This document shows positions 30,001-36,000 of a stretch of 64,000 bases of DNA, one piece after another. Each line of letters begins with the position of its first letter. The first letter of the stretch is position 1. Made by a program: the position numbers. Source of the DNA: Spirochaetota bacterium (GTDB lineage Bacteria > Spirochaetota > UBA4802 > UBA5550); assembly GCA_016928865.1 (NCBI GenBank), contig JAFGJX010000030.1, positions 62,835 through 126,834 on the forward strand, written 5' to 3'.

Positions 30001-33000
30001 CCACGGCGGAAGACGATAATCTCACCAGCGCGCGCGCAATGCTGAACGAGGCCGCCTCCCTCCTCCAGCTCGAGGAGGATGGATTATTCAGGTTTTATAC
30101 GGGAGAGGAGCTCTCCTTCATGATGAAAAACGCGGGCTTTGCCGATATCGCGATCACCATGTCCATGGGGAATCCGCCGCAGGCGGTGATCGTGACCGGT
30201 ACAAAGCCGAACGCGGGGTAACGGGTGTCAAAAATATCGGTGTAAATGAATAAATCATGAACATAACGGAAAGAATATTTGAATCGTTAAGCGGATGGAG
30301 CGATCATCCGGCGTTTATCGATCTTGATCCTGAAAGGGGGCCGACGTACGTGTCCGCGCCGCAATTCAGCGGAAGAGTTCGGGACGCGGCAGACATCCTG
30401 AAAAAGCACGGGATACGCAGTGGCTTTATCGTGGCCCTATTTCTAAACAATTCAATAGATTTTATTTCGATTTTTTTAGCGTTGATGTTCATCGGCGCGA
30501 AACCGATTCCGGTAAACATGGCGTTCAGGAAGATCGAGCTTGACGAGATTTTCGCCAACGCGGACCCGCATGCGATCATTGCGGAGCGCGATCACCTGAT
30601 CCATGTACGGGCGCACCTTCCGGGAAGGATTGTCCTTGAGCGGGAAGGCGGGAAGCTCTATCTGCATGATGTCGGCGCCGACGCGGCACGACGGGAGCCG
30701 GCAGAGCTGGGTGGGGACATCGCATCGATCAATTACACCTACCGGGGCCATGGCTATCCCCTGGGCGCGCTGGTGCCGCACCGACAGTACCTCGACGGGG
30801 CTGACGTCCTTGAAAAGGCGGTGATGCTCGAACGGGGAGAACGGATACTGGCAATACTCCCGATGCAGCATATATTCACTCTGATCGGCTGCGTGTTTCT
30901 CCCCCTGCTGTACGGGGTTACGACGGTCATATCGTACAGCAGAAATCCGCTGAGGCTTTTCGAAGCGGTCACCGAACACGGGATCGATTATGTGCTGGCC
31001 GTGCCGGAGCTGTATGAGCTGTTCCTGAATCTGCGCGAGGCCGCAGGCGCGGTACCCCGGATGAAGGCCTTTCTCTCCGGAGGGAGCGTTCTCCCGGAAG
31101 AGCACTATGGCCGTCTTATGGAGGAGTTCGGCGTGGAGCTGATCCACGGCTACGGGCTGACCGAGTTCACGCCCGTGAGCAGAAACATCAGGGGCGCAAT
31201 TCGGCCGGGAACGATCGGCGTGATTAGCGACTGCGTTGAATGCAGGATTGATTCGCCTGACGCGAACGGCTCAGGTGAAATTATGATCAGGACGAAAAAC
31301 ATGGCGCGCGGATATTACAGGCGCCCAGCCGAGACCGCGGATGCCTTCCATGACGGATGGTTTGGTACCGGCGATATCGGGAGAATCGATAACGGGCACC
31401 TGATATTCGAGAGGGAGAAGAAGGGTACCAGAAAGATGAAAGGGAATATGGTGGACCTGGAGGAGGTTAAAAAAGCACTTGTTATGTATTCCTCAGTTTG
31501 CGAAGCAGAGGTAGAGTATTTTAATAAAAATGTTATAGCAACTGTAATTATTAATCCTAGTGTTAATTTTAATGATGATGTATTGAATATTAAAAGACGT
31601 ATGGAAAATATTATAGCAGGATATAAAATTCCAAAAACAATTAATGTATATTAAGGTGAAACATATGGGAAACAATATACAATCATATGATATCAACAAG
31701 GAGATTGTTGAGATCGTATCAAAAGTTACACGTATTGATAAGCATTCAATACTTAAAGAAAATTTAATAAGAGAAGAATTAGGAATTGATTCGTTAATGT
31801 CTATAGAGATTATTGCGAACGTTGAAAAACAATTAAATATTGCAATTGATGAATCTAAAATGAGTAATATCAATACTGTTGGAGATTTTATTAAATTTGT
31901 AGAATTAATAATGGATAGCAAATAAATCTATGAGCACAAGAACGTTACAGCATATATGCTTGATCAGTCCAAAACGTGATCAATGGTCTAAGACGGGAAA
32001 AATACGGGATGTCCTTGAGAAAAATAATAGATATTTAAAAGCGTGGTATGCGCCCAATCTGAGTCTATTAACAATTGCTGGTATTACACCTGCCGACATT
32101 AAAATCACATATATCGATGAAGATTTTGAGTCAATTGATTTTAACGCCAAATATGATTTGGTTGGAATATCGGCAATGACTCAACAGATCGTAAGGGGAT
32201 ATGAAATTGCATCTGAATTCAGGGAAAGAAACATTTTTGTTGTAATAGGTGGTATTCATTCCACGGTCATGCCAGAGGAAGCGTTACAATATGCTGACGC
32301 AGTATTTATTGGCGAATCTGAAAGAACATGGCTCCATTTTTTGAATGATTATCGAAATAATATTGAAAAGAGGATTTATAAACAGGATAAAGATACTCTT
32401 CCTGATTTACAACATGTTGTTCTTCCTCAATATGATATCATTAAAGATAAGAATTATTTTAAAGATCCAAATTATTTTTATAATATGATCCCGATTCAAG
32501 CCGGAAGAGGGTGTCCTCATGATTGTGAATTTTGCCTCGTGTCGAAGATATACGGTAAAAAATACAGGATGAAGAGAATAGACCAGATAAAGCTTGAAAT
32601 AAATGAAATTAAGAAGTATTTTCCAAACAGACTGATAATGTTTGCTGATGACAATCTTTTTATCAACAGGAAATTTTCAAAAGAACTACTGAATGAAATA
32701 AAAGAATTGAATATTCGTTGGGTTGCTCAATCAGACATATCAATTGGTGATGATGATGAGTTATTGGAATTGATATACCAAAGTGGCGGTCTATTCTTGC
32801 TAGTTGGTTTTGAAAGTATAGATCCTGATAATTTGAGGAATCTTAATAAAAGTTCGTGGAAATATAAGCAGCTTTTGAATTATAAGAAAAATATTGATAA
32901 TATTCAAAAGCATGGCATTATCGTTTTTGGATCATTTATCTTTGGGCTTGATAATGATGATGACAGTGTTTTTAAGGGTGTCGTAGATTTTATGCATGGG

Positions 33001-36000
33001 AATTTTCTAACAGGTCAGTTGACAATTGCAACACCTCTGCCGGGGACCGACCTTTTGGGCAGATTGAAAAATGAAAATCGTTTATTGGTTAAAGAGCCTT
33101 TCTGGGATAAGTGCACCTTTTTTGATGTGCTTTATCAACCGAAAAAAATGACAGTTGATGAATTGGAAAATGGTTTTATATGGGCCTACGGGCAATTGTT
33201 CAATGAAGATTCTTTTAAAAAAAGGGCTGACTATTTGAAAGATATATATAAAGGAATTGATAAACAATCATGAAGTACGATCAAAAAACTATTGAAGCAG
33301 TTTTCAATGAAGAAATTTTACAGAATAGAATTCGTAGAGTGATAGTTACATCGCAAATAGCGATGATTGCTATTCCGTTTTTCTTAATCCTTGACTACTT
33401 CATGTATCCTGAATTTTTAACCACCCTCTTTCTTATAAGAGTTATTATTACAATACCATACATTTTAGTGATACTGTTAATCAAGAAATCAATTGTACTT
33501 CAAAAGTATATCCAAGAATTAAGTATGTTCCTGCTTTTCAACGCGGGTGTTGGGATAGCGTATATGATACATATCACGGAGGGATATGTATCACCATATT
33601 ATGCTGGTCTGGTTGTCGTTATTCTTGTCTCGTGTATTACAATGACATTAACAATAAAAAGGACGATTGTTGTCACATCATTAATTTATTTTTCATATAT
33701 TATTCCAATCTTGATCAAAGGTGATATCAGTGATGTTGCTATTTTCGTAAATAATAACTTCTTTTTGATTGCCATGGTAATCTTTGCGCTGTTTGGCGCG
33801 TATACACAGGAGTCTATACAGAATAATGAGTTTAGTGCAAGATATGAGATACAAAAATCAAATGAAGAATTACAAAATCTCACCGACGAGCTCGCTGAAA
33901 CCAACCAGAAGCTCCTCATCCATGACAAGCTGAAGACCGAGTTCTTCACCAACGTGAGCCATGAGCTCAGGACGCCACTGACCCTGATACTGGCGCCGCT
34001 CAAGCCAATTATTGAAGGACATTCCGGACCGCTGCCGCAGCCGGTCGTCGATACCCTGCAGACCATGCAGAACAACGGGCACCGGCTCCTGAAGCAGATA
34101 AACAACCTCCTCGATTTCGCCAAGCTGGAAGCGGGAAAAATGCGGCTCAATATCCAGGAAGTCGACCTGATCGCTTTCTGCAAGGACGTCATCGCAGCCA
34201 TGCAGCACGCCGCCACCAGCCGGGGCCTGAAGCTCTATTTCCAGTACCAGATGGAGGACGCGATCAAGGTGATGATCGATACGGAGCAGTTCGAAAAGGT
34301 GGTCATGAACCTGCTCCACAACGCAATAAAGTTCACGTCCCGGGGCGGGCGGATAACGCTCTTCCTCGACGAGCGCGAGGAGGATGTCGAGCTCGTCGTT
34401 CAGGATACCGGTGTCGGGATCCCGGATAACATGCTGGATACCATCTTCGACCGCTTCGCGCAGGTTGACGGCTCGTCCACGCGAAGCACGGAAGGGACCG
34501 GCCTGGGGCTGTCGCTGGCGAAAGAGATCGTGGAACTGCACGGGGGCACCATCCGCGCAGAAAGCAGGCAGGGCAGTGGGTCGCGTTTCATCGTGCGTGT
34601 CCAGAAGGGCGAGCGCCATATCGGGGAGGAGGTCCGCGAGCGGCGGAAGTCGGAGCAGCCGGTCCAGTACAAGAAGCGCGCCACTGACATGGAGGGGCTC
34701 AAGGTCAGCGATGTGGTCAACAACTACCGCGACATCCAGCTCATCGACCTGGAGCAGAAGCCCGAGGTCCAGACCAAGGAGCACCGGCGCGGCACCCACG
34801 AGTTCACCCTGCTCGTTATTGACGACAACCCGGACATCCTGAAGCTGATGCATTTTCTCCTTCATGACGAATTTGACATTCTGCTCGCCGGATCGGGGCG
34901 GGAAGGGCTCAGGACCGTGCGGGAAAAGAAGCCGGACCTGATCATAAGCGACGTGATGATGCCCGAGATGGACGGCTATACCTTTTGCCGCGAGATCAAG
35001 GCCGATCCCGAATTCAAGCATATACCGATTGTTCTGGTAACCGCGCGCGCTGGCTCGGAAATGCTGGTCGAGGGGATCGACTCTGGCGCCAATGACTACA
35101 TCGCCAAGCCATTCGATGTTGCAGAGCTCAAGGCGCGGGTGCGCTCCCTGTTGAGGACCAGGACGATGGAGGAGGCGCTTGCCCTGGCCAACCAGAACCT
35201 GAAGATACGGACCGAGGACCTGGTGGAGCGCCAGCGATCGCTCCTTCACTCAACGGTCAAGTCCCTGGTGTCGACCATCGAGGCAAAGGACAATTACACC
35301 AAGGACCACTCCCTCAGGGTGAGCAAGTATTCCCTGGCCATCGCGAGGAAGATGGGGTATGCCGAGCATGAGCTCAATGACCTCGAGCTGGCCGCGCTCC
35401 TTCACGATGTCGGCAAGATAGCTGTCCCGGAGGAGATCCTGCACTTCAAGGGCAAGCTCACCGACAGGGAATTCAACCATATCAAGAACCATCCCGCGAA
35501 CGGCGCTCAGATCATCCGTCCGATCACCGAGTTCAAGGGCGTCGCGTCGATTGTGCTCGCGCACCACGAGCATTACAACGGAGAGGGCTATCCCTTTTCG
35601 CTCTACAAGGACGACATCCCGCTCGGCGCGCGCGTCATGGCCGTCGCGGACGCGTACGACGCCATGACCTCGGAGCGTCCCTACCGCAGCGCGCTCTCCC
35701 ACAATTTCACCGTCAAGGAGATCGTGCGGTGCTCGGGCACGCAGTTCGATCCCAGCATCGTGGACGTGTTCCTGTCAATACAGGACACGTTCGGCGAGAT
35801 CAAGAACAACGGCCTGCAGGTGCAGGACATGAGCAATTGAGCGGGACCGGTCCCAATTTTTCATTGATTTATTGATCGCCCGGGATATAGTATGTCCCGA
35901 TCATGAATGATAATCCCACATCCACGAACGTCTATACCGTCTCGGACCTGACCCGCACCATCAAGCGCACCCTCGAAGGAAGGGCGGAATTCAACAACCT

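Follow-up and report, generated by a model that had tools for sequence, protein, structure and literature searches.

The stretch of DNA analyzed here, 64 kb from a metagenome-assembled genome of a Spirochaetota bacterium (contig JAFGJX010000030.1; hereafter the window, meaning the whole stretch), carries an operon with an AT-rich block that begins inside a gene for an adenylate-forming ligase, takes in the genes for an acyl carrier protein (ACP) and a B12-binding radical S-adenosylmethionine (SAM) enzyme (hereafter rSAM), and ends inside a sensor kinase gene. We conclude, with a probability of roughly three in four, that this block is an allele of an AT-rich cassette that is hypervariable, sits in a conserved five-gene operon and is exchanged by homologous recombination at two anchors. 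The cassette has been swapped between defined breakpoints, in this locus and recurrently across lineages; its genes are under purifying selection, and it was in place before the window separated from a 94%-identical relative. All coordinates are in window numbering, and the operon lies on the + strand.

The G+C content (GC) in 200-bp windows falls from 0.52–0.63 to 0.25–0.38 at about position 31400, stays low until about 33900 and then rises to 0.55–0.67. The merged low-GC segment spans 31426–33925 (2,500 bp, GC 0.32), against a mean of 0.534 for the window and 0.542 ± 0.060 for 500-bp windows outside the block. Break sites were placed by a maximum-likelihood change point on the GC of third codon positions (GC3). 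In the ligase gene the break is at codon 403/404, nt 31466 (2-log-likelihood-unit support 31463–31517), where GC3 drops from 0.68 to 0.11 with a likelihood-ratio test (LRT) value of 75.9. In the kinase gene it is at codon 203/204, nt 33879 (support 33876–33900), where GC3 rises from 0.33 to 0.83 with an LRT value of 181.8. Shuffling 1000 times gave LRT values of at most about 20, and the range for the other long genes in the window was 10–38. A preliminary description of the sequence had placed abrupt GC edges at 31468 and 33880, which agrees with the change points to about 2 nt. It had also stated that the edges fall within open reading frames (ORFs) with the frame kept, and that some 60 ligase codons, the ACP, the rSAM and some 200 kinase codons are AT-rich. 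Both statements were borne out: the two break sites lie inside intact ORFs with an unbroken reading frame, and the AT-rich part consists of 62 ligase codons, the whole ACP gene, the whole rSAM gene and 203 kinase codons, the remainder of the kinase having a GC3 of 0.83. Similar GC swings elsewhere, which the same description had named as something that would speak against the block, were not found among the genes of the window. GC3 of its 45 non-overlapping ORFs ranges from 0.53 to 0.81 (median 0.68), the exceptions being the rSAM (0.30), the ACP (0.22) and an antisense ORF that is probably spurious, so that no other credible gene falls below 0.53; the remaining low-GC patches (2851–3500, 10351–11075 and 16726–17475) are all intergenic. 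The GC of the cassette (0.32) matches that of the intergenic DNA of the window (0.30–0.33).

The junctions were compared with those in independent assemblies. Window positions 30764–36465 (5,702 bp), which include both junctions, are matched at 100% identity by a Logan contig assembled from SRR13394437. An NCBI 'Spirochaetes bacterium' metagenome-assembled genome (MAG) encodes, on a contig of 127,928 bp, a ligase (P0259) identical to that of the window and a protein (MBN1495858.1) identical to the last 688 residues of its kinase. A Logan contig from a different sample (L002, ERR14964780), with 94.3% nucleotide identity over window positions 31302–41377, contains the same block with the same boundaries and GC profile. 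Synonymous divergence (dS) between the window and L002 is 0.12–0.15 in the block and 0.16–0.23 in the flanks; the cassette has been resident since before the two split. In this pair the sensor domain has a ratio of nonsynonymous to synonymous divergence (dN/dS) of 0.03, the rSAM one of 0.10 and the ligase tail one of 0.29, with values of 0.29–0.44 across ligase tail and ACP. The cassette genes are under purifying selection.

Comparison with sister lineages revealed the swap. Four Spirochaetota-type contigs (L086, L094, L095 and L096) carry the operon in a syntenic order: TPR protein, inositol monophosphatase, PilZ-methyltransferase protein, ligase, ACP, rSAM, kinase, xseA and xseB. Protein identity of L094 to the window is high in the flanks (TPR protein 91%, inositol monophosphatase 82%, PilZ-methyltransferase protein 75%, ligase N-domain 77%, kinase 86%, REC-HD-GYP 85%, XseA 81%) and low in the block (ligase tail 27–49%, ACP 36–45%, rSAM 44–45%, sensor 46–47%). 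At the nucleotide level, the blastn alignment of L094 with the window ends at 31476 and resumes at 33564, in the last third of the sensor domain. The ligase P0260, from a JGI contig, is about 98% identical to that of the window over residues 165–404 and 27% identical from residue 405 on, with 93% over the whole N-domain. Over ligase residues 350–404 P0260 and L002 each have 3 differences from the window, yet the P0260 tail differs, the comparison being one of the ligase sequence only. For the window sensor, identity to the sensor of the closest relative by kinase is 46% (kinase part 86%), but it is 74% to the L086 sensor and 60–64% to the sensors of Desulfobacterota-type hybrid kinases, which have cores only about 40% identical. 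Similarly, the window rSAM shares 45% identity with that of the sister L094 and 63–68% with those of L086, of the low-GC contigs L084 and L098 and of Desulfobacterota-type loci, and the window ACP is 36% identical to that of L094 and 48–55% identical to those of type-A loci, type A being the cassette of the window and type B that of L094. Parts of the cassette are thus closer to distant lineages than to sisters, which requires recombination with horizontal exchange. The comparisons support the view that the ligase tail, the ACP, the rSAM and the kinase input set the window apart from its nearest relatives as one block, forming a recombinational mosaic with breakpoints inside genes.

Exchange is not confined to the window. 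A search of genome contigs with the rSAM alignment filled up with generic radical-SAM motif matches; the 80 loci listed were relatives at no more than 44% identity, and 5 of the 80 contained the operon or part of it. A search of metagenome contigs gave 3 loci. The operon was also found in Desulfotignum phosphitoxidans and related contigs (L003, L088, L092 and L093), where the HD-GYP part is a separate gene. In a set of 16 kinases with cores 74–94% identical, 15 keep enough of the sensor to compare, and these fall into at least seven sensor types (25–87% identity) whose distribution is scrambled relative to the kinase cores. Kinase and sensor identities are, respectively, 94 and 30% for P0123/P0132, 92 and 44% for P0124/P0134, and 86 and 46% for the window and P0122. 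L086 and L096 have flanking DNA about 87% identical but rSAMs only 58% and sensors only 30% identical, and the rSAM and the sensor of L096 both have their nearest counterparts in Desulfotignum. Between L003 and L088, identity is 78–82% in the flanks and 30% in the sensor. Further ligase pairs show identities of 84 and 35%, 87 and 39%, and 80 and 39% for N-domain and tail. The right breakpoint always lies at the sensor/HisKA boundary, while the left one varies, lying either within the ligase or at the ACP/rSAM border. Sub-blocks have also been exchanged separately: rSAM with sensor in L086/L096, and the sensor alone in L003/L088.

Both breakpoints of the window are next to strongly conserved coding stretches. 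In the ligase this is the motif KGNMVDLEEV, and directly after it GC3 switches and similarity to L094 and P0260 collapses. In the kinase it is LTDELAETNQKLL...FFTNVSHELRTP, reaching SHELRTP. Judged from their conservation, KGNMVDLEEV and the stretch from LTDELAETNQKLL to SHELRTP would be natural anchors for homologous crossovers. Since the crossovers fall in these two stretches, both junctions are in frame. No meaningful boundary repeats were detected at the block edges, no tRNA or other Rfam match was found within the 64-kb window, and no mobility genes were called in any syntenic locus. Searches for phage relatives found none, and plasmid matches were at no more than 40% identity. The block is not a mobile island.

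The GC step recurs with the cassette. GC3 of the cassette and of the flanks, respectively, is 0.34–0.40 and 0.7–0.8 in L094, 0.17–0.23 and 0.5–0.7 in L095, 0.3–0.45 and 0.6–0.7 in L086, and 0.33–0.42 and 0.64–0.72 in L096. The values are 0.49–0.58 and 0.76–0.87 in L005, which has a different gene order, and 0.14–0.39 in the cassettes of L003, L088, L092 and L093, where the kinase part is at about 0.5. A step at the sensor/kinase boundary was seen in every GC-richer homologous operon examined; low-GC hosts (L084, L010, L011 and L098) have none. L086 and L096 share their ligase-tail/ACP part by vertical descent (nucleotide identity about 80%), and it is AT-rich all the same. The pool of cassettes is persistently AT-rich, and this composition is no mark of this particular event; because the alternative cassettes of relatives and the vertically inherited ligase-tail/ACP part are also AT-rich, low GC cannot serve as the signature of the swap. 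A low-GC gene pool, a mutational equilibrium in which diverged alleles escape GC-biased gene conversion, and selection are candidate causes that fit equally. The equality of cassette and intergenic GC is consistent with the second, a decay to mutational equilibrium where divergence of alleles blocks homologous recombination and GC-biased conversion. The amino-acid composition of the membrane domain was considered as a cause of the low GC and rejected, since the drop is at synonymous third positions and includes the soluble ACP and rSAM.

If composition is taken by itself, AT-rich codons might be selected independently of any exchange history, through slow translation for cofactor loading or membrane insertion, low mRNA structure in support of translational coupling, or binding of a nucleoid protein that would control expression. 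Retention of the GC3 dip, and of the step where the sensor meets HisKA, in all GC-richer hosts, in at least two phyla and in the rearranged operon of L005 is what this explanation would predict; so is persistence of the dip in vertically inherited parts, and the overlap of the rSAM stop with the kinase start also agrees with it. The mechanisms, however, are hypothetical, the dip spans soluble proteins (ACP and rSAM) as well as a membrane protein, and its depth is variable (rSAM GC3 0.20–0.53) and loosely tracks host GC, which is more like a balance of mutation and recombination than a fixed optimum. We regard selection on codons as an unlikely account of the composition.

A single recent import from a low-GC donor, with GC not yet ameliorated, is less probable still. 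It would explain the very sharp edges (GC3 shifts within fewer than 10 codons) and the presence of type-A cassettes on the low-GC contigs L098 (GC 26%; rSAM 68%, sensor 60%) and L084 (GC 33%) and in the Eubacteriales MAGs L010 and L011, and the GC3 of the ligase tail and ACP of the window (0.11–0.22) is indeed below that of the relatives L094 and L086. Yet the block is found with the same composition in a relative at a dS of about 0.12–0.2, the alternative or displaced alleles of L094, L095, L086 and L096 are AT-rich too, as is the vertically inherited ligase tail and ACP of L086/L096, the same GC step occurs in L005, L003, L088, L092 and L093, and no donor above 74% identity was found.

Fast evolution in situ, of a weakly constrained or positively selected stretch under local AT-biased mutation and without horizontal exchange, is very improbable. 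The ligase tail and ACP do outpace the flanks in the vertical pair L086/L096 (72–74% against 84–85% identity), their dN/dS is 0.29–0.44, and the match of cassette GC to intergenic GC given above would be expected. But the sensor and rSAM of the window are nearer to distant lineages (60–68%) than to sisters (45–46%), the closeness of the L096 rSAM and sensor to those of Desulfotignum is left unexplained, the change in P0260 from 98% to 27% identity on either side of one codon is not a rate effect, and selection on the rSAM and sensor is strongly purifying. An assembly chimera, in which reads from the homologous operon of a low-GC organism were joined at conserved k-mers shared in ligase and kinase, has a negligible chance of being correct: the source is a metagenome-assembled genome and both junctions adjoin highly conserved motifs able to bridge de Bruijn graphs, but the NCBI MAG, the SRR13394437 contig and the ERR14964780 contig agree base for base, or nearly so, with both junctions in each, divergence between the window and L002 (dS included) is similar within and outside the block, which a chimera would not give, and six more syntenic loci have the same architecture. 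To the extent that assemblies can tell, chimerism is effectively excluded.

These results modify the interpretation given in the preliminary description, which had seen a foreign cassette recombined into resident homologues, with ACP, rSAM and kinase input swapped as a unit. The recombinational mosaic stands, on the evidence of L094 and P0260, while low GC as the signature of foreign origin does not, as the alleles of relatives are AT-rich too. Exchange as a unit holds for the window, while sub-blocks can move separately in other lineages, as in L086/L096 and L003/L088. Low GC as the mark of a recent import had to be abandoned: no donor closer than 68–74% protein identity exists in the databases searched, and the event is neither recent nor unique. 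Of the findings that were thought to threaten the original proposal, an assembly artefact is excluded by the three agreeing assemblies. Another, a close relative with the same segment and composition, does exist in L002 (94%), and only shifts the event back in time.

Several points weigh against the conclusion that the block is an exchangeable cassette of a signalling operon. No donor and no near-identical copy of the cassette in another lineage was found in the searched databases, where the best non-self matches are at 68% for the rSAM and 74% for the sensor; a search of the sensor against 1.84 billion representatives gave one match at 57%, the rest being at or below 45% and nearly all below 37%, none of them a close donor. 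The matches therefore fix neither the direction nor the date of the swap, nor which lineage, the window or L094/P0260, changed. Exchange of cassettes does not by itself account for their persistent AT-richness. Co-variation of the parts is imperfect: in L003 and L090 the sensor that accompanies the type-A rSAM is unrelated, and the left breakpoint is not the same in all lineages. In a Mantel test on only 11 non-independent loci, the sensor was correlated with the neighbouring rSAM (r=0.43, p=0.03) and not significantly with its own kinase half (r=0.11, p=0.18). The sensor domain MASE8 (PF20968.4) is listed for the kinase and its relatives in precomputed Pfam annotation, but a local hmmscan with PF20968.2 gave no match for the 210 N-terminal residues of the window kinase and E=0.012 for L096. 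No NCBIfam model matched the operon proteins at cut-off. In the literature no paper on the operon was found, and MASE8 is mentioned once in passing. The product of the operon, its ligand and its role in signalling are what we infer from sequence.

The components of the operon and the two anchors are listed in the table.

Table. Components of the operon and junction anchors, in window numbering.
Feature	Position	Strand	Properties
PilZ/hydrolase-like/methyltransferase protein, 1187 aa	26658..30221	+	GC3 0.68, host-like; conserved flank, outside the cassette
Adenylate-forming (acyl-CoA/ACP ligase-like) enzyme, N-domain and hinge	30257..31465	+	GC3 0.68; conserved left flank
Left anchor and breakpoint	31439..31474	+	Codons for KGNMVDLEEVKK, invariant or nearly so in all relatives (protein and codon alignments)
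Cassette part 1: ligase C-terminal subdomain, 62 codons	31466..31654	+	GC3 0.11
Cassette part 2: ACP	31644..31925	+	GC 0.25, GC3 0.22; Pfam PP-binding 46.7 bits; DSL phosphopantetheine site
Cassette part 3: class-B (B12-binding) radical SAM enzyme	31930..33273	+	GC 0.34, GC3 0.30
Cassette part 4: N-terminal polytopic membrane sensor of the kinase	33270..33878	+	GC3 0.33; about 6 hydrophobic helices with short loops (hydropathy)
Right anchor and breakpoint	33879..33992	+	Codons for LTDELAETNQKLLIHDKLKTEFFTNVSHELRTPLTLIL (signalling helix and H-box), nearly identical in nucleotides in relatives; GC3 jump
HisKA-HATPase-REC-HD-GYP part of the kinase	33879..35840	+	GC3 0.83; conserved right flank; Pfam HisKA, HATPase_c, Response_reg, HD_5/HD

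The 1187-aa protein matches Pfam PilZ (73.8 bits) and, with a C-terminal SAM methyltransferase, Methyltransf_23, Methyltransf_31 and Methyltransf_11. The PilZ motifs RKHIR and DISTSG are N-terminal, with further PilZ-like motifs elsewhere. Its middle part (28065–29102) has a mean column identity of 75% across 10 orthologues and includes the motifs AFSMSA, YGKYDRW and PTGHN; the Ser, Asp and His are invariant in the 10 orthologues, a triad typical of alpha/beta hydrolases. This domain matched the LuxD myristoyl-ACP thioesterase (1THT) weakly (E=0.17), and PF02273 matched weakly in the L086 and L096 orthologues. A single-sequence AlphaFold model of the hydrolase-like domain had a mean predicted local distance difference test score of 34 and was unusable. 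The weak sequence matches from which a LuxD-like assignment of the middle domain is drawn make it a tentative one.

The ligase gene in full spans 30257–31654, and its product matches Pfam AMP-binding (173.6 bits, residues 10–354). In ANL enzymes it is the C-terminal subdomain that swings round to face the carrier protein. In the window and in relatives (about 440–480 aa), the ligase stops 5–10 residues past YKIPKT (window 31600–31654), as judged by eye. Neither a match to AMP-binding_C nor the lysine of the A10 motif PKTxxGK was seen, again by eye, in the ligase or its relatives; the family would seem to do without the A10 catalytic lysine and the last 25 or so residues of canonical ANL enzymes. 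The true start of the ACP is probably Met8 (nt 31665), which follows AAGGTGA, and the L002 orthologue was called as 86 aa. The rSAM matches Pfam B12-binding (42.3 bits; cut-off 32.1) and Radical_SAM (55.3 bits; cut-off 29.5). With an N-terminal B12-binding domain, a radical SAM core and the CxxxCxxC motif CPHDCEFC at residue 195, it belongs to class B. No NCBIfam equivalog matched it at cut-off, the best being HpnJ, with 116 bits where 578 are required. The full sensor kinase has 856 aa (33270–35840). The PilZ RxxxR and DxSxxG motifs, the ACP DSL, the rSAM CxxxCxxC, the kinase H-box, the receiver Asp and the HD, HHE and GYP motifs are all intact.

The rSAM stop and the kinase start share the sequence ATGA (33270–33273), which implies translational coupling within the cassette. 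In relatives with other cassette types, the rSAM and kinase genes are separated by 9–120 nt. Public annotations clip the AT-rich 5' part of such kinase genes. The window kinase, MBN1495858.1, is annotated from Met169 (688 aa), and two relatives (MBP7734663.1 and OHD64903.1) from MLTDELAE, exactly at the composition junction (655 aa). The clipped proteins, minus the membrane sensor domain, are named 'response regulator' or 'hypothetical protein'. The practical effect of this clipping by gene callers is that membrane kinases appear in public annotations as soluble 'response regulators' with a start at the junction or close to it.

Two contigs contain two paralogous B12-binding rSAM genes per locus: L084 (502–1836 and 7334–8623) and L089 (10001–11347 and 13942–15261). 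In each, a type-A copy, 58–68% identical to that of the window, lies beside the operon, and a different type, at about 40%, occupies the in-operon position. Such pairs may be an intermediate in cassette turnover. On L098 (1–3749; SRR24269689, GC 26%) a TPR protein is followed by an ACP, a type-A rSAM and a type-A sensor kinase with no adjacent ligase, and the ACP-rSAM-sensor core may exist as a unit by itself.

A four-gene block of about 3.2 kb, encoding a DsrE-like protein, TusA, a NarI-like membrane protein and a Fer4/CCG protein, lies between xseB and a 95-aa ORF/methyl-accepting chemotaxis protein in L094 (12380–15641), L096 (14271–17351) and L087 (5902–8886). It is absent from the window (37508–37652) and from L002, probably through a deletion in the window lineage. 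The three intergenic AT-rich patches of the window are 650–750 bp long and have the same GC as the cassette (0.30–0.33). They sit 5' of very large ORFs (3187–6279, 11531–16660 and 17344–22212) and are unusually long for promoters. A short imperfect tandem of three AAGGCGATT copies (2905–2940) lies at the start of the first patch.

The arrangement was compared with known polymorphic signalling loci. In comQXP of Bacillus subtilis, comQ, comX and the 5' end of comP are polymorphic, so that the variable stretch runs from the modifying enzyme through the signal gene to the membrane-sensor end of the kinase, while the kinase core and the response regulator are conserved, with discrete types across strains (PMC6334282). 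Here, as in comQXP, the variable stretch ends within the kinase gene at the sensor/kinase boundary. Unlike comQXP, where the signal is the ribosomal peptide ComX isoprenylated by ComQ and the output is a DNA-binding regulator, the operon has no peptide gene, with an ACP and a B12-binding rSAM instead, and its output would be hydrolysis of cyclic di-GMP (c-di-GMP). Its types are shared across phyla, its cassette is markedly AT-rich, and the comparison is across lineages rather than within one species.

The edges of the variable block of agr in Staphylococcus aureus lie within agrB and agrC: part of the enzyme varies in concert with the complete signal gene and with the half of the kinase that holds the sensor. 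The geometry here, with block edges inside an enzyme gene and a kinase gene, matches. The agrBDC variable region co-evolves as a linked block, with no linkage to agrA or to other parts of the genome (PMC8768832). In contrast to the operon described here, agr has a peptide thiolactone signal, is restricted to Firmicutes, comprises four groups in one species and has no compositional step; its specificity is experimentally demonstrated, while here it is only inferred.

Rpf systems, which make the diffusible signal factor (DSF), combine a fatty-acyl ligase (RpfB), an acyl-ACP synthase (RpfF), a multi-helix membrane hybrid kinase that senses a fatty acid (RpfC) and a REC-HD-GYP phosphodiesterase (RpfG). 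In Stenotrophomonas maltophilia the RpfF variants have their own RpfC partners, RpfF-1 with RpfC-1 and RpfF-2 with RpfC-2, and it is in the transmembrane input that the RpfC variants differ (PMC4504480). Pfam matches reveal the same combination of a membrane-input hybrid kinase, a REC-HD-GYP output and an adjacent fatty-acyl ligase in the operon. No crotonase domain of the RpfF type was found by Pfam or NCBIfam in any operon gene, the ACP and the B12-binding rSAM holding that place. The operon also differs from Rpf/DSF in that the HD-GYP part is fused to the kinase (separate in L003, L088, L092 and L093) and in containing the PilZ-hydrolase-methyltransferase protein. It is not a member of the Rpf/DSF family and could, by analogy, be a functional analogue.

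O-antigen and capsule loci are persistently low in GC, with many deeply diverged alleles that are replaced by recombination in conserved flanks, and the cause of their low GC has long been debated. Their breakpoints lie in flanking genes or intergenic DNA, in contrast to breakpoints inside protein domains here, and their driver is antigenic or phage selection on a surface structure, whereas the present module couples enzymes to a sensor domain. Two traits of a pherotype locus are present, namely a hypervariable stretch of putative signal-synthesis genes plus sensor between conserved flanks and allele types incongruent with the flank phylogeny. Inclusion of an enzyme subdomain in the cassette and the conserved AT-rich composition set it apart from comQXP, agr and rpf. 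We classified the block as a polymorphic synthase/sensor cassette in an uncharacterised operon, with a conserved compositional step.

How the cassette might work can be proposed from its content. The ligase C-terminal subdomain, ACP, rSAM and membrane sensor are replaced by crossovers in the two conserved coding stretches, and the four parts would travel together since they need to fit one another. The ligase tail would dock the ACP, and the rSAM would modify the acyl chain bound to it. About six sensor helices with short loops suggest an intramembrane ligand; the membrane-buried sensor may detect the resulting lipid-like product and drive the HD-GYP domain to lower c-di-GMP, and the lowered c-di-GMP would feed back on a PilZ-gated hydrolase-methyltransferase. 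The co-travelling parts are those expected to touch one another or the product, and we therefore propose that the cassette types, like the variants of agr, comQXP and rpf, could set the specificity of a lipid signal and its sensor. The cassette probably serves to make such a signal and to sense it in a matched way.

A broader interpretation is tentative, and we doubt it more than we believe it. The operon could be a previously unrecognised lipid self-signalling system of Spirochaetota, Desulfobacterota and low-GC Eubacteriales-type MAGs, in which an acyl chain on a dedicated ACP, tailored by the rSAM, would be released by the LuxD-like hydrolase-methyltransferase under c-di-GMP gating through PilZ, perhaps with methyl-esterification, and sensed in the membrane by the adjacent kinase, which would switch the HD-GYP phosphodiesterase. 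The AT-rich cassettes would then be 'dialects' (pherotypes) exchanged within and even between phyla, and kept AT-rich by the escape of diverged alleles from homologous recombination and GC-biased gene conversion.

A GC step inside one gene, in hosts of 36–61% GC, is a natural experiment on what keeps coding DNA GC-rich, and bears on recombination with biased gene conversion, selection and repeated import as candidates. If the exchange of cassettes is as we describe, domain-precise cassette exchange, so far known mainly from peptide quorum-sensing loci, would extend to a module of ligase subdomain, ACP, rSAM and sensor in uncultivated anaerobes. The parts transferred together would then predict which proteins are in contact and what an orphan sensor detects, leading to a testable pair of signal and receptor.

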